DNA of 64,000 nucleotides from Escherichia coli (GTDB lineage Bacteria > Pseudomonadota > Gammaproteobacteria > Enterobacterales > Enterobacteriaceae). The stretch is taken from the NCBI RefSeq assembly GCF_044324875.1, contig NZ_CP172185.1. One strand, written 5' to 3'. Within the stretch, counting starts at the first letter, position 1. Each line of letters starts with the position of its first letter. The notes beneath the pieces were generated by a model that ran no database searches, had not been told where the DNA came from, and saw nothing but the letters and a program-made list of their open reading frames with translations. The position numbers were made by a program, and so were the translations under genes. Shown piece after piece: positions 21,415 through 62,730 of this stretch.

Positions 21415-21741
21415 ATGACTAAAAATACTCGTTTTTCCCCCGAAGTCCGTCAGAGGGCGATTCGTATGGTTCTGGAAAGTCAGGGCGAATATGACTCACA
21501 GTGGGCGGCAATTTGTTCCATTGCCCCAAAGATTGGCTGTACACCGGAGACTCTGCGTGTCTGGGTACGCCAGCATGAGCGGGATACCGGAGGCGGTGAT
21601 GGCGGGCTCACCACCGCTGAACGTCAGCGTCTGAAAGAGCTGGAACGTGAAAATCGTGAACTGCGCCGCAGTAACGATATCCTTCGCCAGGCTTCCGCTT
21701 ATTTTGCGAAGGCGGAGTTCGACCGCCTCTGGAAAAAGTGA
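21415..21741 (+). CDS. IS629-like transposase OrfA
   Basis: 108 aa, HTH plus leucine-zipper region ([29 protein letters not shown]). Confidence 0.85.
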
Positions 21742-22628
21742 TGCCACTGCTGGATAAGCTGCGTAAGCTGTACGGGGTCGGACCGGTATGCAGTGAACTA
21801 CATATTGCCCCGTCAACGTATTACCACTGTCAGCAACAGCGACATCATCCTTATAAACGCAGTGCCCGTGCGCAGCGCGATGACTGGCTGAAGAAAGAGA
21901 TACTGCGCGTATACGATGGGAATCATCAGGTATACGGTGTGCGTAAAGTCTGGCGTCAGTTGTTACGGGAAGGAATCAGGGTAGCCAGATGTACAGTGGC
22001 GCGCCTCATGGCGGTTATGGGACTTGCCGGTGTTCTCCGGGGTAAAAAGGTCCGCACTACCGTCAGCCGGAAAGCCGTTGCCGCAGGCGACCGCGTAAAC
22101 CGTCAGTTTGTGGCAGAACGTCCTGACCAGTTGTGGGTGGCTGATTTTACTTACGTCAGCACATGGGAGGGGGTCGTCTATGTGGCGTTCATCATTGATG
22201 TGTTTGCCGGATACATCGTGGGGTGGCGGGTCTCATCGTCTATGGAAACGACATTCGTGCTGGATGCTCTGGAGCAGGCGTTATGGGCCCGTCGACCGTC
22301 CGGCACAGTCCATCACAGTGATAAAGGTTCTCAGTATGTATCGCTGGCCTACACACAGCGGCTTAAGGAAGCCGGATTACTGGCATCAACAGGAAGTACT
22401 GGTGACTCGTATGACAACGCGATGGCGGAGAGCATCAATGGCCTTTACAAAGCGGAGGTAATACACCGTAAGAGCTGGAAAAACCGGACAGAAGTGGAGC
22501 TGGCCACACTCACGTGGGTGGACTGGTATAACAATCGACGATTGCTGGAAAGGCTGGGCCATATCCCACCGGCAGAAGCAGAAAAATCTTATTATGCTTC
22601 CATCGGAAACGATGATCTGGCAGCCTGA
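21738..22628 (+). CDS. IS629-like transposase OrfB (DDE integrase core)
   Basis: 296 aa overlapping orfA stop; [10 protein letters not shown]...HHSDKGSQY...[10 protein letters not shown]. Confidence 0.85.
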
Positions 22629-34420: not shown

Positions 34421-35152
34421 TCACCTGCCATCCAGTAGACGCCCCGGCCCACGACTGCAACCATAATTACGTTGCCCGGAACCGTTATGCAACTTCGTTT
34501 CATATTTCACGAGATAACTGGCTCTGTTCCGGGCTTTCTGCATCGCTTCCACATCACCACGCTTGACCCAGAGCACAGCGGATTCACCCGGCTTTTTGTC
34601 TGAAGCCTTCCTGGTATCAGAACATCCACCCGACAAAGGCGTATCATCGGAAGAAGGGCGAGCATCAGATGATGTCGGTTTACGGAAAGGCGTCCGCCTG
34701 GAAAAATGAACCAGTCCATTACCCTGCCAGGGCTCAAGATGCAGAGCACTACACCATGCCAGCTTGATCAGTGTCGCCAGCGAAGAAGGAACGGTGAAAT
34801 CCCCTGGCGAGCACCAGGTATCTTTGTTGAGCAGCAATATCACGTGATAATGTTTCCTGCCTTTTTCCTTGCCAAACTCCCGGCACCAGAAATAACGCAG
34901 AGTGGTTGCACGCACACGCTTGTTGGCACGTCGTTTTTTCCGCTGGTAAGCCTGAATTTTGGCTTTCAGGGATGCAAAAAAACGAGAAATCACCGCTGAA
35001 TCCGGATCGGGATCCATGATGGTGACAGGCATATACTCAGGGAAACGTAAATCCACCCGGATTAACGAGACGGCACGGTGCTGCGCCAGGGCACTGTCGA
35101 GAAGGCTGTCAAAACGGGATAACCAGTAAGCATTATGTATTGGTTGATTCAT
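34421..35152 (-). CDS. YfjJ/YagK-family (inovirus Gp2-like) island protein
   Basis: 243 aa, ATG 35150-35152; AVSLIRVDLRFPEYMP, RKHYHVILLLNKDTW. Confidence 0.6.
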   Translation of the reverse strand: MNQPIHNAYWLSRFDSLLDSALAQHRAVSLIRVDLRFPEYMPVTIMDPDPDSAVISRFFASLKAKIQAYQRKKRRANKRVRATTLRYFWCREFGKEKGRKHYHVILLLNKDTWCSPGDFTVPSSLATLIKLAWCSALHLEPWQGNGLVHFSRRTPFRKPTSSDARPSSDDTPLSGGCSDTRKASDKKPGESAVLWVKRGDVEAMQKARNRASYLVKYETKLHNGSGQRNYGCSRGPGRLLDGR

Positions 35153-36191
35153 GATGAGAGATCTCCGTTGATTTGGATTGACTTCACATCATTAATCACC
35201 GCAGTAAAACTTTACGGCGTCCTGTCATTAAGCAACACCAGTGGCTCCTGATTAGAACAGAATGAGTTTCCCACGAACAAAAAGACAAACCTACACGCAG
35301 GGTAAAAACACGCAACAACAGCATGAATGGATTTGAAAACAATATGGATGACGAAAAATGTCAAAAGTGAAACGGATCAACAGAACGTGCAAACAAAACG
35401 TCAGAAACGCAATCAGAGCACTTTCTGGCGCTGTGAATCAACAACAACACCAAAACCTACAGCTTAACCACATTACTCAATCACGAATGCGAATGACACG
35501 TTTAAAACCTGTTTACAGATAACGCCGTAACACGATCATCCCCATCACCATCAGAATCGATTTTCTCATCCCGAAAATGTTACGTTTCACTACGCACCAT
35601 AAAAACGATTAACCATCGATAACGTAAATCTCATCTGAATCAAAAAACCAAAACCAATCATCACACTTTCGCAATGCAAGAAGAAAAACCACATCATGAC
35701 GAAAACAATGACCTTACATGAAAAAGCAAAACGTCAGGAATCGTTAATGCCTCAATCTGATTGTTATCAAAACATCCAGAAAGTCGTTTAACAGAATCGT
35801 CGTAAGCACATCGAAAAGAACGTCAGATCACCTCAGGAAAGTTCGGGTTGATTTAGCGTAAAGATACTTTTCTCAGCTTAACGTCGAAACACAAACCAAA
35901 AACCACAAACAACCAAAGCTCAGGAAAGGTTAAACGTCACATCAGTAAAATCGAATAGCAGATTGATTGCTTAAACAGAAAGGTTTTACAGCAGCTTTAA
36001 ACTGATTTTAGCTAACGTAAAGATTTACTAAACTGGATGAGTTTCAGACAAAGCAATGTGTACAGCAATGCTTAATGAAAACACTTATAGGGCTGTTTAT
36101 GAAAACACGTGTATGTCTGGTAAAACACTTAGTAGAAAATACGTGTATAACACTTACTGAAATGCTTAGTAAAAATACTTAGTAAAATATG
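35153..36191. other. About 1 kb ORF-free, strongly A/C-skewed tract with short recurring motifs
   Basis: No track ORF of 60 aa or more on any frame; motifs aacgtcag (4 or more) and acgtaaa; dense acacttag/acacttac/tacttag plus acgtgtat repeats at 36100-36190 continuing after the IS2. Confidence 0.5.
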
Positions 36192-36282
36192 TAGACTGGC
36201 CCCCTGAATCTCCAGACAACCAGTATCACTTAAATAAGTGATAGTCTTAATACTAGTTTTTAGACTAGTCATTGGAGAACAG

Positions 36283-36648
36283 ATGATTGATGTCTTAGGG
36301 CCGGAGAAACGCAGACGGCGTACCACACAGGAAAAGATCGCAATTGTTCAGCAGAGCTTTGAACCGGGGATGACGGTCTCCCTCGTTGCCCGGCAACATG
36401 GTGTAGCAGCCAGCCAGTTATTTCTCTGGCGTAAGCAATACCAGGAAGGAAGTCTTACTGCTGTCGCCGCCGGAGAACAGGTTGTTCCTGCCTCTGAACT
36501 TGCTGCCGCCATGAAGCAGATTAAAGAACTCCAGCGCCTGCTCGGCAAGAAAACGATGGAAAATGAACTCCTCAAAGAAGCCGTTGAATATGGACGGGCA
36601 AAAAAGTGGATAGCGCACGCGCCCTTATTGCCCGGGGATGGGGAGTAA
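36283..36648 (+). CDS. insC: IS2 transposase OrfA (InsC)
   Basis: Identical translation to 8401-8766. Confidence 0.9.
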
Positions 36649-37511
36649 GCTTAGTCAGCCGTTGTCTCCGGGTGTCGCGTGCGCAGTTGCACGTCATTCT
36701 CAGACGAACCGATGACTGGATGGATGGCCGCCGCAGTCGTCACACTGATGATACGGATGTGCTTCTCCGTATACACCATGTTATCGGAGAGCTGCCAACG
36801 TATGGTTATCGTCGGGTATGGGCGCTGCTTCGCAGACAGGCAGAACTTGATGGTATGCCTGCGATCAATGCCAAACGTGTTTACCGGATCATGCGCCAGA
36901 ATGCGCTGTTGCTTGAGCGAAAACCTGCTGTACCGCCATCGAAACGGGCACATACAGGCAGAGTGGCTGTGAAAGAAAGTAATCAGCGATGGTGCTCTGA
37001 CGGGTTCGAGTTCCGCTGTGATAACGGAGAAAAACTGCGAGTCACGTTCGCGCTGGACTGCTGTGACCGTGAGGCACTGCACTGGGCGGTCACTACGGGC
37101 GGCTTCAACAGTGAAACAGTACAGGACGTCATGCTGGGAGCGGTGGAACGCCGCTTCGGCAACGAGCTTCCGGCGTCTCCAGTAGAGTGGCTGACGGATA
37201 ATGGTTCATGCTACCGGGCTAATGAAACACGGCAGTTTGCCCGGATGTTGGGGCTTGAACCGAAGAGCACGGCGGTGCGGAGTCCGGAGAGTAACGGCAT
37301 AGCAGAGAGCTTCGTGAAAACGATAAAGCGTGACTACATCAGTGTCATGCCCAAACCAGACGGGTTAACGGCAGCAAAGAACCTTGCAGAGGCGTTCGAG
37401 CATTATAACGAATGGCATCCGCATAGTGCACTGGGTTATCGCTCGCCACGGGAATATCTACGGCAGCAAGCCAGTAATGGGTTAAGTGATAACAGGTGTC
37501 TGGAAATATAG
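36606..37511 (+). CDS. insD: IS2 transposase OrfB (InsD)
   Basis: Identical translation to 8724-9629. Confidence 0.9.
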
Positions 37512-38227
37512 GGGCAAATCCAATATGTGTAGAATTATCTATTTAAAAAGATATGTATATAACACTTAATAAAAACATGTGTATATAGTATCATACCGAC
37601 ATTCTCAACATCTTCAGACTTCCATACATACTGGGTGTTGATTTCTCACTTTTACAGCCAGCATGGAGTTTTCTGTCCTAAAAACAGAGCAGATTTACTC
37701 TGGAATTATTTTTCTGCCCCCGTATTTCAGGCCCCAGAAAAGACAATCCGAAGCAAACCGTTTGTCAGCCTCCATATCATCTTTTACCCCCGGAAAGTGA
37801 TCGCGTTTTACAACCAGAATGACAGCCATACTGATTATGTCGTCTCCCGGCCCCCTTCACATATAACATGCATGTCTGTCATTGCTTACTGCTCCACATG
37901 ACCGGATTTCACATACAGGATGCACATTCAGTGTTTTTATCGCCACTATAACAGACAGATTACTGTCGTCTTTACTCTTCAGATTGTTAATCTGACCACA
38001 AGAACAGCCGAACGGCAAAACGCCCTCCACAAGGGGCACATGAACCATAGTTGATAGCATGTTTTTCCTAATCAAGGAATAGTTCAGGAATATTTTATTG
38101 CATTAATAACTGGCGAATAATCGTTCTGTGAACACAAAATGCTTTTATTTGTAAATTTTATTGCATTGCACTCGTTTTATTGATATGGGGTTTAATAACA
38201 GATAACCCGGAAAGAAGGAGAAAACAG

Positions 38228-39019
38228 ATGACATTACGGATTAACGATCAGGGGCGAGATAAACAGAATCAATTTTTATCGAAAAATGGAGAAAATCTGA
38301 ATTCGTTAAAATCGCGTCATGTGCAGGATAGGCATTTACCTGAATGGCTTAAGGATAAAGTTGCAGCATTCTGGTTTTGTCTGGTGATAAAGGATATGAA
38401 AGTGTCAGGGAGCAGTTACTATGAACTTACCATGCAACTTCCCACTTCTGAAGAATCTGTTTGCATCAGTAAGCTGTCATCCTCAACCCATGAGATTCGG
38501 CTGGAGATCATCAGGCGATGGATTGATAGTGTAGCACAGATAGAAACGGAAGCTTTTACTAAAAATCTCGTTGATGCCATCTATAAAAACTGGAAGGAAA
38601 TCGGGAACAAAAACCAGGCTACATGGCTTAAAAAAAATCCGGAACAACTCGAGTGGGCATGGAAATATATTAACATTCGTATTCCCGAGTCACATTTAAC
38701 CTGGTTTTGCCCCGTCAATAACGAAGAGAAACGCATTGCCATCTTAGCATTGCTTAAAATACTGTATCCCGGAGATATACCATGCCAGTACAACGACAAA
38801 GAGTTTCATGTCGGGATCTGCGCTGAAGAACATTTTTACAGAAGAATGCACGACGCTTTCAGAAAACAGTTTATCGACGGGAAAAAAGATAAACGGGTAC
38901 AAATTAACGTAAAGATATCACCGTCCGCAAAAAGCGCTCTGGACAGACTGACCAGAGCGAGGAAAACAACACAGCAGGCTATTCTGGAACAACTGATTCT
39001 GAACGGTAGACTGGATTAA
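38228..39019 (+). CDS. AT-rich orphan protein with C-terminal ribbon-helix-helix-like segment (function unknown)
   Basis: 263 aa from ATG 38228 with AAGGAG SD 7 nt upstream; C-terminus KRVQINVKISPSAKSALDRLTRARKTTQQAILEQLILNG has a strand-helix-helix pattern; no family recognised. Confidence 0.5.
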   Translation: MTLRINDQGRDKQNQFLSKNGENLNSLKSRHVQDRHLPEWLKDKVAAFWFCLVIKDMKVSGSSYYELTMQLPTSEESVCISKLSSSTHEIRLEIIRRWIDSVAQIETEAFTKNLVDAIYKNWKEIGNKNQATWLKKNPEQLEWAWKYINIRIPESHLTWFCPVNNEEKRIAILALLKILYPGDIPCQYNDKEFHVGICAEEHFYRRMHDAFRKQFIDGKKDKRVQINVKISPSAKSALDRLTRARKTTQQAILEQLILNGRLD

Positions 39020-40002
39020 CTTTCACTACTTCCACTCCTGGCAGTTTTCCTCTTTTTGTAGTGTCTCCCGGCTGCAGGCATCAGGTACTTTTCCGTCATT
39101 TCGTTGCAGAACTCTTCAATGTAGTTAATCAGCTTCTGGTGTGCTTTCACCTTTTCTTCCCCGGGGGACGCTTTCAGATAAATGTCCTCCTTTTCCACAA
39201 GTGTATTTATAAACTCTCCCGGACATCCCTGGTTATAAAGCAACGTGAAAAACAACACATTCCCCAGTCTCTCCAGTAACTGCGATTTAACCCTGTATTG
39301 TTGTTTGCTGAGGATTGATTGTTTTATAAAGCTTAGTCTTGTTAAAAGTTGTTCAAATCCCGGTTCCAGTTTAAAAACAGATTTTAATACCAGGGACTGA
39401 TACTCCTGATAAAAAAGTTCAAACGTCGGGGATGCAGACTGACGAACAGATTTGGCTACAACCCATGGACTAAATCCCATGATTGGGATTTCCTTCGCTC
39501 CCTCCAGCGCACTCAGAGGTAGTCCAGCAATCCATGCGTCCAGCTTAGCCGAATCAATATCCCCGCTCAAAACCTCATACAAACTGCCCGTGAACGGTTG
39601 AGTCGGTTTTTTTGTTGTTTTACCTTCTGATTGCCTGAATCCATCCACTTTTCTCCGGATATTACGCGGAATCAGCATAAAAGGCGGGACATTAAGTGAT
39701 AAACGTTTACCCGTCATACGATACCAGTGGCCCACCTCAACCTTAATCCGTGTATCTGGCCTTGTATCTGGCCTTGTATCTGGCCTTAGCTCAAGTGCTA
39801 TTATGTTAAGCAGGTACAGATAACGCACCGTATAACAGTCAAAATGTTTCTCCGGATCAAACGGCTCTGATCGTTCTCTGCACACAAGTCCGCTGCGCTT
39901 CAGTATTCGCTGGGTATCTTTCCAGGCCTTACTCTGAAGAATGGTGGTAACTCTGGCTTTATTAGCAATCTCACGCAGCGCATCACTTTGTTGTGCCGTC
40001 AT
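39016..40002 (-). CDS. AT-rich orphan protein with RPDT x3 repeat (function unknown)
   Basis: 328 aa from ATG 40000-40002 (track start 40017 is GTG) with GGAGGG SD; convergent with and overlapping the preceding gene by 4 bp. Confidence 0.5.
   Translation of the reverse strand: MTAQQSDALREIANKARVTTILQSKAWKDTQRILKRSGLVCRERSEPFDPEKHFDCYTVRYLYLLNIIALELRPDTRPDTRPDTRIKVEVGHWYRMTGKRLSLNVPPFMLIPRNIRRKVDGFRQSEGKTTKKPTQPFTGSLYEVLSGDIDSAKLDAWIAGLPLSALEGAKEIPIMGFSPWVVAKSVRQSASPTFELFYQEYQSLVLKSVFKLEPGFEQLLTRLSFIKQSILSKQQYRVKSQLLERLGNVLFFTLLYNQGCPGEFINTLVEKEDIYLKASPGEEKVKAHQKLINYIEEFCNEMTEKYLMPAAGRHYKKRKTARSGSSES
39751..39786 (-). repeat. 12-bp tandem repeat x3 inside the coding sequence (encodes RPDT-RPDT-RPDT)
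   Basis: tgtatctggcct at 39751, 39763, 39775. Confidence 0.85.
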
Positions 40003-40108
40003 CTCTTCCCTCCACACTTTGTCACTCCAGATTTTTTCACGTCCATATTACCTGAATGATAAACCGGATTAGTGTGATCCGGTTCAGCGAAATCAACAGG
40101 ATACCGGT

Positions 40109-40993
40109 ATGTCATTCAGCCATTCTTCCCTCTCTGCACAAGTGAAATCATATCTGACGTTTCTTCCTGAAGAAATTCGCCAGAAAATCCTTGAACATCT
40201 CCACGGTGTTATTCATTACGAGCCCGTGATTGGCATTATGGGTAAATCCGGCACAGGCAAAAGCAGCCTGTGTAATGCCATTTTTCAGTCCCATATCTGC
40301 GCCACGCATCCCCTGAACGGCTGCACCCGCCAGGCTCATCACCTCACCCTGCAGATCGGTGAACGCAGAATGACGCTGGTCGATCTGCCCGGCATTGGTG
40401 AGACACCGCAGCATGATCAGGAATACCGGGCACTTTATCATCAGTTGCTACCGGAACTGGATCTGATTATCTGGATCCTGCGGGCTGATGAACGTGCGTA
40501 TGCTGCCGATATTGCCATGCATCAGTTTTTACTGAATGAAGATGCCGATCCCTCGCGTTTTCTGTTTGTTCTCAGCCATGCCGATCGCGTGTTTCCTGCT
40601 GAAGAATGGAACGACACAGAAAAATGCCCGTCCCGTCAGCAGGAACTCTCACTGGCGACAGTAACAGCCCGGGTGGCCACCCTGTTCCCGTCATCATTTC
40701 CGGTACTCTCCGTTGCAGCGCCTGTCGGCTGGAATCTTCAGGCACTGGTGTCACTGATGATCCACGCACTGCCACCACAGGCAACCAGCGCGGTTTATTC
40801 GCATATCCGGAATGAAAAGCGCACTGCGCAGGATCAGCAACACGCACAGCAGGCTTTTGGTGACGCCATCGGCCAGAGTTTTGACGCTGCCATTGCCCGG
40901 TTCAGCTTTCCGGCCTGGATGCTGCAGCTTCTGCGCAAAGCCCGTGATCGCATTATCCGCCTGCTGATCACACTGTGGGATCGCCTGTTCTGA
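40109..40993 (+). CDS. YeeP/YfjP-family GTP-binding protein (island-associated GTPase)
   Basis: 294 aa; P-loop GIMGKSGTGKSS, DLPGIGE; MSFSHSSLSAQVKSYLTFLPEEIRQKILEHL. Confidence 0.8.
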   Translation: MSFSHSSLSAQVKSYLTFLPEEIRQKILEHLHGVIHYEPVIGIMGKSGTGKSSLCNAIFQSHICATHPLNGCTRQAHHLTLQIGERRMTLVDLPGIGETPQHDQEYRALYHQLLPELDLIIWILRADERAYAADIAMHQFLLNEDADPSRFLFVLSHADRVFPAEEWNDTEKCPSRQQELSLATVTARVATLFPSSFPVLSVAAPVGWNLQALVSLMIHALPPQATSAVYSHIRNEKRTAQDQQHAQQAFGDAIGQSFDAAIARFSFPAWMLQLLRKARDRIIRLLITLWDRLF

Positions 40994-55869: not shown

Positions 55870-55990
55870 TAGGACGGATAAGGCGTTTACGCCGCATCCG
55901 GCAACAGATGCCTGATGCGACGCTACCGCGTCTTATCAGGCCTACAAAATCCGAACCGTTGAACGGATCAGGCGTTTACGCTACGTCCAG
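55870..55990. repeat. REP/BIME-type palindromic elements
   Basis: gcgtttacgccgcatccggc ... gatgcgacgctaccgcgtcttatcaggcctac ... ggatcaggcgtttacgc. Confidence 0.6.
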
Positions 55991-62595: not shown

Positions 62596-62730
62596 AACGC
62601 CTTATCCGGCCTACAAAAGCATGCAAATTCAATATATTGCAGAGTTCATGTAGGCCTGATAAGCGTAGCGCATCAGGCAGTTTTGCGTTTGCCATCAGGC
62701 TCAGTTGCCGGGCATAGCCCGGCATCAAAA
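62596..62730. repeat. REP/BIME palindromic elements between IS150-like element and rhlE
   Basis: gccttatccggcctacaaaagcatgcaaattcaatatattgcagagttcatgtaggcctgataagcgtagcgcatcaggca. Confidence 0.55.

Follow-up and report, generated by a model that had tools for sequence, protein, structure and literature searches.

A convergent gene pair encoding a ribbon-helix-helix protein and a hypervariable partner as a candidate control module of a common Escherichia coli integrative island family

Two adjacent genes of an Escherichia coli integrative island, here called A and B, are the subject of this analysis; they lie in a 64,000-nucleotide stretch of contig NZ_CP172185.1 (RefSeq assembly GCF_044324875.1), which as a whole is referred to as the window. 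We found that B-type genes occupy almost every slot beside one clade of YeeP/YfjP-like GTPase genes, and that B is near-universal yet hypervariable in this slot, with three deeply diverged forms. In a third of the loci, B has a separately encoded DNA-binding partner, A, in which profile comparison reveals a CopB-like ribbon-helix-helix (RHH) domain. Our favored, if tentative, explanation is that A and B constitute a core module that controls the life cycle of integrative islands belonging to a very common family, a function that we infer, next to the domain identity, co-occurrence, position, and slot occupancy that were established by direct comparison.

About one in three complete E. coli genomes contains islands of this type, frequently several of them, and the islands carry antirestriction genes, toxin-antitoxin systems, and defense and virulence cargo. 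The location of B and its RHH partner between the excision/replication genes and the GTPase/anti-defense operon makes them concrete candidates for a control module. What is new here is the partner superfamily B, uncharacterized but very common; mobile-element control built around an RHH protein is of a known kind.

A B-type gene fills nearly every slot beside the GTPase gene

In a census of 5426 complete E. coli genomes, short B, the form that is accompanied by A, was found at 821 places in 742 genomes, and two longer forms, named after the loci L026 and L027, were found at 516 places in 463 genomes and at 1067 places in 975 genomes, respectively. The three B types together account for 2404 places, compared to 2503 places in 1870 genomes for the GTPase gene of this clade; a B-superfamily gene thus stands beside approximately 96% of the clade GTPase loci, which makes B a near-universal core gene. 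A 2-kb query matched at 2374 places in 1826 genomes, mostly through its last 68 bp, i.e., the GTPase leader, and the islands without A were found as loci that matched only the 68 bp directly 5′ of the GTPase gene.

In these A-less islands, the same slot holds, in the same orientation, one longer gene product of 376 or 407 aa annotated as a hypothetical protein. Both products are remote homologues of B, as evident by hhalign probabilities of 98% (E value of 2e-13) and 94% (E value of 1e-7), respectively, with the same motifs aligned. Both long proteins possess an N-terminal extension of approximately 90 residues with a C-x4-C-x15-C-x2-H arrangement and a very basic stretch, and these extensions appear to bind nucleic acid in cis, while no A-like open reading frame (ORF) was found between the long B gene and the Gp2 gene in L026. 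The supply of A in trans in one architecture and of a basic extension on B in cis in the others provides an argument of the Rosetta-stone type that A and B act jointly on DNA. Because the three interchangeable architectures stand by neighbors that are 90 to 95% identical, they also offer a simple comparative handle.

The YeeP/YfjP-like GTPase gene of the window (40109 to 40993, plus strand) is the divergent neighbor of B and the first gene of an operon that continues with DUF932, antirestriction, RadC, DUF987, and CbeA/CbtA genes. On the other side, divergent from A, lies an Inovirus Gp2/YfjJ-family gene encoding a rolling-circle Rep-like protein (34421 to 35152, minus strand), with a spacer of approximately 1.7 kb, or approximately 3 kb when an insertion sequence (IS) within it is counted. 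The island backbone accordingly consists of P4-type integrase, AlpA, YfjI, and Gp2-like Rep genes on one side and the GTPase operon on the other.

An earlier note on this DNA had placed the pair in the cargo position of the island. For this clade the label is a misfit: a B-type gene sits in nearly every such slot, which does not receive many unrelated gene sets. The label suits the more distant CP4-57 island of E. coli K-12 (L028, 7352 to 13356), in which the slot between yfjJ and yfjP is made up of abpB, abpA, yfjM, rnlA, and rnlB; the slot can therefore take defense cargo.

The occupants of the K-12 slot, abpAB and rnlAB, are annotated as anti-phage or toxin-antitoxin systems, and they speak for a rival explanation in which the pair would be a conflict system that defends against phages, brings about abortive infection, or keeps out competing elements; B would be an effector of a new kind and A its DNA-binding regulator or sensor. 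The antirestriction and toxin-antitoxin genes nearby point the same way, as does the defense cargo carried by related Pseudomonas islands with IntY, AlpA, Gp2-like, and RadC genes (PMC12595487). If this were correct, such a system would be both new and very widespread. Nonetheless, occupancy of about 96% of slots by one superfamily is unlike a defense hotspot with its many unrelated systems, the pair is kept at the same backbone position across genera, no phage homologue was found, no A or B variant matched an entry of PADLOC-DB v2 (systems up to 2023), and neither protein has an effector-like domain. We therefore regard this explanation as unlikely, and the life-cycle control module remains the one we favor.

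A and B are maintained tail to tail across genera

In the window, A (38228 to 39019, plus strand, 263 aa) extends from its ATG at 38228 to a TAA stop codon at 39017 to 39019, and B (39016 to 40002, minus strand, 328 aa) extends from its ATG at 40002 to a TAA stop codon on the complement of 39016 to 39018. Both stop codons are contained in a palindromic TTAA of 4 bp (39016 to 39019), through which the two genes overlap tail to tail. Each gene is preceded by a strong Shine-Dalgarno sequence, AAGGAG located 8 nt 5′ of the ATG of A and GGAGGGAAGAG ahead of the ATG of B, and the GC contents of 0.41 (A) and 0.45 (B) compare with 0.54 to 0.57 in the next two genes, encoding the GTPase and the DUF932 protein. 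The earlier note had described the two ORFs with their Shine-Dalgarno sequences, their higher AT content relative to their neighbors, and the 4-bp 3′ overlap exactly as they are. RefSeq labels both products (WP_000175256.1 for A and WP_029396404.1 for B) as hypothetical proteins; both are basic, with pI values of 9.3 (A) and 9.55 (B), and soluble, with no transmembrane segment.

When short-B loci from E. coli, Citrobacter, Serratia, Salmonella, and metagenomes, representing at least four genera, were inspected, a convergent A-like gene was present in 19 of 19. The genes thus do co-occur across genomes, a point that the earlier note had proposed to examine, and the designation of the pair as an uncharacterized module was borne out. 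All 12 E. coli loci, which span three A types that are mutually 25 to 50% identical, share one gene order, i.e., a Gp2/YfjJ-family gene (minus strand), an AT-rich spacer of approximately 1.7 kb, A (plus strand), the 4-bp overlap, B (minus strand), a 105-bp gap, and the YeeP-like GTPase gene (plus strand). In the seven distant loci, the B homologue has a convergent neighbor of 259 to 320 aa that aligns to A over its full length. Homology of the partner to A was confirmed in all seven distant loci and in five E. coli loci (L002, L004, L005, and the two A types of L014 and L016 to L020); the confirmed partners are 21 to 27% identical and retain the invariant tryptophans, and the distant ones also have the RHH C terminus.

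The surroundings are likewise conserved. In Citrobacter amalonaticus Y19 (L010) and a Serratia contig (L011), AlpA and YagK/YfjJ genes lie on the side of A, and GTPase, DUF932, antirestriction, RadC, and CbtA genes lie on the side of B, with DUF987 and CbeA genes also found in L010. A Salmonella-related contig (L013) has the same B side and ends short of AlpA/YfjJ. The Pfam models YagK_YfjJ_C and REP_ORF2-G2P match the Gp2/YfjJ-equivalent genes in the related loci.

In other genera, the two 3′ ends overlap by as much as 26 bp or stand up to 121 bp apart, and no consistent terminator hairpin was detected in the A-B gaps of the distant loci. The 4-bp overlap that the earlier note had stressed is therefore a property of the E. 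coli loci, where it is kept in 12 of 12, and what is conserved among genera is the tight convergence rather than the overlap itself. The earlier note had also stated that the overlap forces coordinated or mutually interfering transcription; this goes too far, although mutual interference is plausible.

These observations bear heavily on the explanation that the two ORFs are decaying or nonfunctional remnants that overlap by chance. Their AT-richness, lack of annotated function, relaxed ratios of nonsynonymous to synonymous substitution rates (dN/dS), and lack of a predicted promoter might be cited for it. However, no reading frame is broken in any of the 19 loci, dN/dS stays below 1 at dS values up to more than 2, full-length homologues with invariant residues persist at 21 to 32% identity across genera, and the 4-bp overlap survives in all 12 E. 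coli loci despite only 25% identity between A types. Conservation effectively refutes this explanation, which we consider extremely improbable.

A carries a CopB-like ribbon-helix-helix domain at its C terminus

Gene A encodes a tryptophan-rich helical N-terminal domain (residues ~35 to 215) followed by a CopB-like RHH C terminus. The N-terminal domain of about 200 residues contains eight tryptophans, five of which are invariant; the invariant positions of the A family (alignments A1, A3, and A9) are W40, F48, W49, W122, W133, L134, and W145. Searches of AFDB50 and the PDB returned no relatives of this domain beyond its own family. The 284-aa K-12 protein YagM was also tried as an A homologue and was rejected on comparison.

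The RHH domain (38894 to 39004, plus strand; residues ~223 to 259) was delineated by hhalign and Pfam. Full-length A gave only weak matches, to RHH_1 with an E value of 0.065 and to NF010256 (CopB/RepA) with 13.4 bits. With the C-terminal domain in isolation, the E values were 0.0023 for Pfam RHH_1 and 0.018 for RepB-RCR_reg; E values of 0.1 or lower were obtained in 6 of 11 A-family members with the former model and in 9 of 11 with the latter. NF010256 matched the same region of other family members weakly, at 14 to 21 bits, compared to a curated cutoff of 87. The strongest evidence came from hhalign, in which the profile of the A C terminus was aligned to a profile of the IncF plasmid CopB protein with a probability of 95.2% and an E value of 2.5e-8 over 39 columns. 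The CopB profile was built from annotated plasmid loci (L021 to L025, alignment A13), and the starting CopB sequence proved 98.8% identical to an annotated plasmid protein named replication regulatory protein RepA. In the AlphaFold2 (AF2) model of A, whose mean pLDDT is 63, helices are predicted at residues 232 to 245 and 249 to 258 after an extended segment.

Altogether, these profile matches show that A carries a CopB-like RHH DNA-binding domain, a profile-detectable strand-helix-helix module of ~45 residues that, by sequence, places A in the RHH superfamily (CopG/Arc/MetJ fold); what the earlier note had put forward as a resemblance at the end of the plus-strand protein is thereby confirmed. 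Over its last 40 residues, A aligns to the strand-helix-helix core of CopB (RepA2) and RepB-RCR_reg (NF010256 and PF10723, of IncF and rolling-circle plasmids), including the helix G/T-x-TQ-x-x-(F/I)-(I/L)-E-x-L-I, and the 284-aa variants of A are entered in RefSeq as replication regulatory RepB family protein. By the same comparisons, A does not belong to the CopB family proper (NF010256; PF10723), because it scores far below the curated cutoff, is three times longer, and occurs in a different genomic setting. CopB is a single domain of ~85 aa that is encoded upstream of, and cotranscribed with, the rep gene that it represses, whereas A has 263 aa, bears the domain at its C terminus, and is convergent with B; the only Rep-like gene nearby, of the Gp2 family, is ~3 kb away (1.7 kb without the IS) and on the opposite strand.

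B belongs to a superfamily without characterized members

In an exhaustive profile search of 1.84 billion proteins, B retrieved 48 cluster representatives, of which about 17 are full length and 22 to 32% identical to B (Citrobacter braakii, C. amalonaticus, Serratia, and Salmonella), while a word-indexed search found A and B mainly in Escherichia. The conserved motifs of B are AWxxTQxxLKRSG, (I/L)(I/V)PxxIRRKxDxFxQ, GSLY, LLxLExxRL, and LGxxLFF, and its invariant residues (alignment A7) are W27, Q31, P112, K118, L141, Y142, E200, and F252. B is by sequence a member of a superfamily, unnamed and defined here, with the motifs AWxxTQ, (I/L)xPxxxR(R/Q)K, (S/G)LY, and LLxxExxRL and a gene divergent from a YeeP-like GTPase gene. 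This context was checked in 19 short-B and 2 long-B loci, the exception being the metagenomic contig L012, which lacks the GTPase.

In L012 (1545 to 10918), the B homologue follows a five-gene cluster (P-loop_TraG of 1011 aa and then products of 209, 285, 199, and 860 aa) and a WYL regulator, with no facing GTPase gene; this arrangement may represent a different cargo or a transfer-related context. Two plasmids carry B, both through inserted island fragments. These plasmids, pNDM5_LS003 (L014, IncI-gamma/K1) and NZ_CP010123.1 (183454 to 184469), are both conjugative and contain inserted fragments with YfjI, Gp2, A, and B; NZ_CP010123.1 lists no feature for its B-like gene.

The earlier note had been unable to place either gene in a named family, and, apart from the RHH domain of A, the profile and structure searches left this position intact. 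Neither the whole of B nor A outside its C terminus matched a family in Pfam, NCBIfam, PADLOC, PHROG, the PDB, or AFDB. Sequence searches of PDB chains returned nothing for A, B, or their profiles, and the only Foldseek returns against AFDB50 were uncharacterized members of their own families. No nuclease, NTPase, TIR, SIR2, protease, or membrane domain was matched in A or B; PADLOC-DB v2, which covers systems up to 2023, gave no match at an E value of 1 or lower for A, B, their distant homologues, or the long-B variants; and none of the phage genomes searched encodes B. A literature search found no publication on A or B. The term orphan, as applied to the two genes in the earlier note, did not survive, as both families are spread over the Enterobacterales and the B superfamily is found beside ~96% of the clade GTPase genes.

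The kinship of the A domain and the invariant residues of B raise another alternative, that the pair would serve as a DNA-processing accessory module when the excised island replicates or is transferred. In this view, A would act as an RHH accessory factor of the type known from relaxosomes and rolling-circle copy control and would mark an origin for the Gp2-like Rep, and B would be a new DNA-acting enzyme or adaptor, possibly working through the invariant Tyr142. The A domain has its nearest relatives among the replication-control repressors of plasmids (CopB/RepA2, RepB-RCR_reg, and RepC of IncL/M), which is consistent with such a role, as are the rolling-circle-type Rep (Gp2/YfjJ) and YfjI genes on the other side of A, the invariant K118, Y142, and E200 of B, and the P-loop_TraG gene cluster beside the B homologue of L012. 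We also take the DUF932, antirestriction, and RadC genes downstream of B to recall the leading regions of conjugative plasmids. Against this alternative, B lacks any signature of HUH, Rep_trans, tyrosine-recombinase, or primase proteins, neither a nick-site motif nor an origin motif was identified, and A remains below the curated CopB cutoff (13 to 21 bits versus 87). A role in DNA processing is in our judgment improbable, and a further observation on the spacer, described below, counts against it.

The module diverges and recombines beside conserved flanks

Across 11 loci, dN/dS was 0.3 to 0.5 for A and 0.4 to 0.7 for B, compared to 0.13 to 0.28 for the adjacent GTPase gene. By these estimates, A and B are real coding genes under purifying but relaxed selection. 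One B lineage (L004 versus L005, L019, and L020) shows 22 to 23 nonsynonymous changes, distributed along the entire protein, against 1 synonymous change; for the B genes of L004 (5707 to 6666) and L005 (5504 to 6463), the counts are 23 and 1, with a dN/dS of ~6. These substitution counts suggest positive selection on a single B branch.

The module is extremely diverged next to a GTPase gene that is 90 to 95% identical, and B is a mosaic of exchangeable segments, the last of which tracks the A type. When L003 was compared with L019, the GTPase genes were identical, while the A proteins were ~25% identical (193 aa differences) and the B proteins well under 70% identical (135 aa differences). Such diverged A and B genes beside an identical GTPase gene indicate that the module is swapped as a cassette by recombination. 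By analogy, a hypervariable module beside conserved flanks resembles the immunity regions of heteroimmune phages.

B additionally contains two in-frame variable repeats. The first, a 12-bp tandem repeat (39751 to 39787, minus strand; 3.1 copies with 100% matches according to Tandem Repeats Finder), encodes the threefold RPDT that the earlier note had pointed out in the minus-strand protein and is perfect; it falls in a loop modeled with low confidence and is present in 1 to 3 copies among homologues (alignment A2). The second, RQS (9 bp), occurs once in the window, twice in L004 and L005, and four times in L020 (2805 to 3782, minus strand).

This behavior also fits the conflict-system explanation introduced above, for which the dN/dS of B (0.4 to 0.7, above that of the GTPase), the lineage with 22 to 23 nonsynonymous changes versus 1, the recombination mosaic with its two variable repeats, and the AT-richness of the genes can all be counted. 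In one specific version, B would represent a new superfamily of fast-evolving DNA-targeting conflict proteins that are guided either in trans, by A as an RHH adaptor, or in cis, by a zinc-finger-like extension, and that mediate exclusion or immunity between competing islands, plasmids, or phages. We give this version little credence, less than the general one; if it were true, there would be a new defense or incompatibility system within the CP4-like island backbone in about a third of E. coli genomes.

Candidate control elements around the pair

The divergent B/GTPase intergenic region (40003 to 40108) is highly conserved, with a mean column identity of 92% even among loci that share just 63% identity in their B proteins. 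Within it lie the hairpin CCGGAT-N7-ATCCGG and a long predicted helix that spans the start codon of the GTPase gene. In the predicted fold of the GTPase leader (40030 to 40135, plus strand; -26.2 kcal/mol, z score of -2.6), positions 40052 to 40067 would pair with 40104 to 40119, burying the ATG at 40109 and enclosing the hairpin. The leader could serve to control translation or to bind a protein.

The DNA upstream of A contains sequence repeats (38077 to 38167) that are candidate operator sites. GAATAGTT (38077) and GAATATTT (38088) are spaced 11 bp apart, and a 13-bp direct repeat, ATTTTATTGCATT, occurs at 38092 to 38104 and 38155 to 38167, 63 bp apart. The 11-bp-phased GAATAG(T/A)T repeats number two in the window and four in L014; in the RepB-type loci L004 and L005, TTATTGCA likewise occurs twice. 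In the distant loci, the upstream repeats are not convincingly shared. RHH proteins act as dimers whose two-stranded sheet enters the major groove at repeated operators, and the repeats are reasonable candidate operators for such a protein, nothing more.

Divergent from A, an unannotated candidate ORF (37857 to 38060, minus strand) would encode a Cys-rich product of 67 aa (MLSTMVHVPL...CSCGQ...CEIRSCG...HACYM) and is preceded by an AGGA ribosome-binding site of its own; it is intact at 78 to 81% identity in loci of A types 1 and 2 and broken in the RepB-type loci.

Farther upstream, in the Gp2-A spacer, we observed an imperfect 13-bp tandem cluster (AAAAYACTTAGTA; 36122 to 36187 in the window and 14359 to 14424 in L001). 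It is kept in all island variants (L001, L002, L003, L004, L014, L026, and L027), the A-less ones included, and may provide the Gp2-like Rep with an origin or iteron-like element. Its conservation in every island variant is a point for the DNA-processing alternative, yet its presence in A-less islands means that A is not needed for the cluster, which counts against that alternative.

Beside this cluster, an IS3-family element (~36190 to 37520), which we take to be IS2 from recognition of its two ORFs, interrupts the Gp2-A spacer. The element is missing in the otherwise 100% identical locus of strain GF43 (L001), and its insertion is therefore a recent, strain-specific event.

Working of the proposed control module

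In the favored control module, A would dimerize through its RHH domain and bind the repeats upstream of its own gene, and bound A would repress both itself and the divergent excision/replication side. B would act on DNA or at the conserved B-GTPase control region, or it would be expressed from a region shared with the GTPase operon; it would need a DNA-binding adaptor, which would be either A, acting in trans, or the Cys-rich extension, acting in cis. The N-terminal domain of A would probably touch B in its C-terminal part. Because the tail-to-tail ends leave no room for a terminator, transcription of one gene would enter the other, each transcript would be antisense to the other, and the resulting mutually antagonistic expression would act as a switch.

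Several observations weigh against this proposal. B has no DNA-binding or catalytic domain recognizable in family searches, and the AF2 models built from shallow first alignments are poor (pLDDT of 63 for A and 46.5 for B), so that no structural inference can be drawn from them. The repeats upstream of A differ among loci and may have arisen by chance in AT-rich DNA, and the promoter scan gave nothing convincing for A or B, with promoter and terminator scans at background level. The same B type occurs up to 4 times per genome, which argues against strict immunity-type exclusivity. The high dN/dS, the branch with 22 to 23 changes to 1, the mosaicism, and the AT-richness would suit a conflict (defense) gene equally. 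Finally, no B-type gene is present in the CP4-57 slot of K-12; hence, B is dispensable for such islands.

Relation to known systems

One analogy is with the immunity regions of phages and integrative elements, such as P22 immI with the RHH proteins Arc and Mnt, or the lambdoid cI-cro region. This likeness is one of analogy only. Like them, the pair forms a small hub between divergent gene blocks, includes an RHH protein, and is diverged and mosaic between near-identical elements. In contrast to them, A and B have no sequence relation to Arc, Mnt, cI, or Cro, B lacks a counterpart, the tail-to-tail overlap is unusual, and the same B type can be found several times per genome.

The pair also shares with type II toxin-antitoxin systems that have RHH antitoxins (ParD, CcdA, and RelB) the tight linkage of two genes, one of them encoding an RHH protein, on a mobile element with toxin-antitoxin neighbors. 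It differs in being convergent and in having the RHH domain at the C terminus of a large protein rather than the N terminus of a small one, and neither A nor B matched a toxin family in Pfam, NCBIfam, or PADLOC; the pair is thus not classed as such a system.

The island itself is like CP4-57, CP4-44, and CP4-6 of K-12 and the IntY-AlpA-Gp2-RadC islands of Pseudomonas (PMC12595487) in its backbone of integrase, AlpA, YfjI, YfjJ/Gp2, YfjP GTPase, DUF932, antirestriction, RadC, DUF987, and CbtA-type toxin-antitoxin genes. Unlike the window island, K-12 has no A or B homologue, as determined by search. The 2025 paper on the related Pseudomonas islands considered IntY, AlpA, Gp2-like, and RadC proteins as likely core functions and gave no mechanism (PMC12595487).

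Other features of the window

No tRNA gene was found in the 64-kb window. Elsewhere in it, Rfam matches were obtained to the ALIL pseudoknot (an IS3-type frameshift element), naRNA4, and the ES036 small RNA, at 21696 to 21812, 55872 to 55942, and 62615 to 62657.

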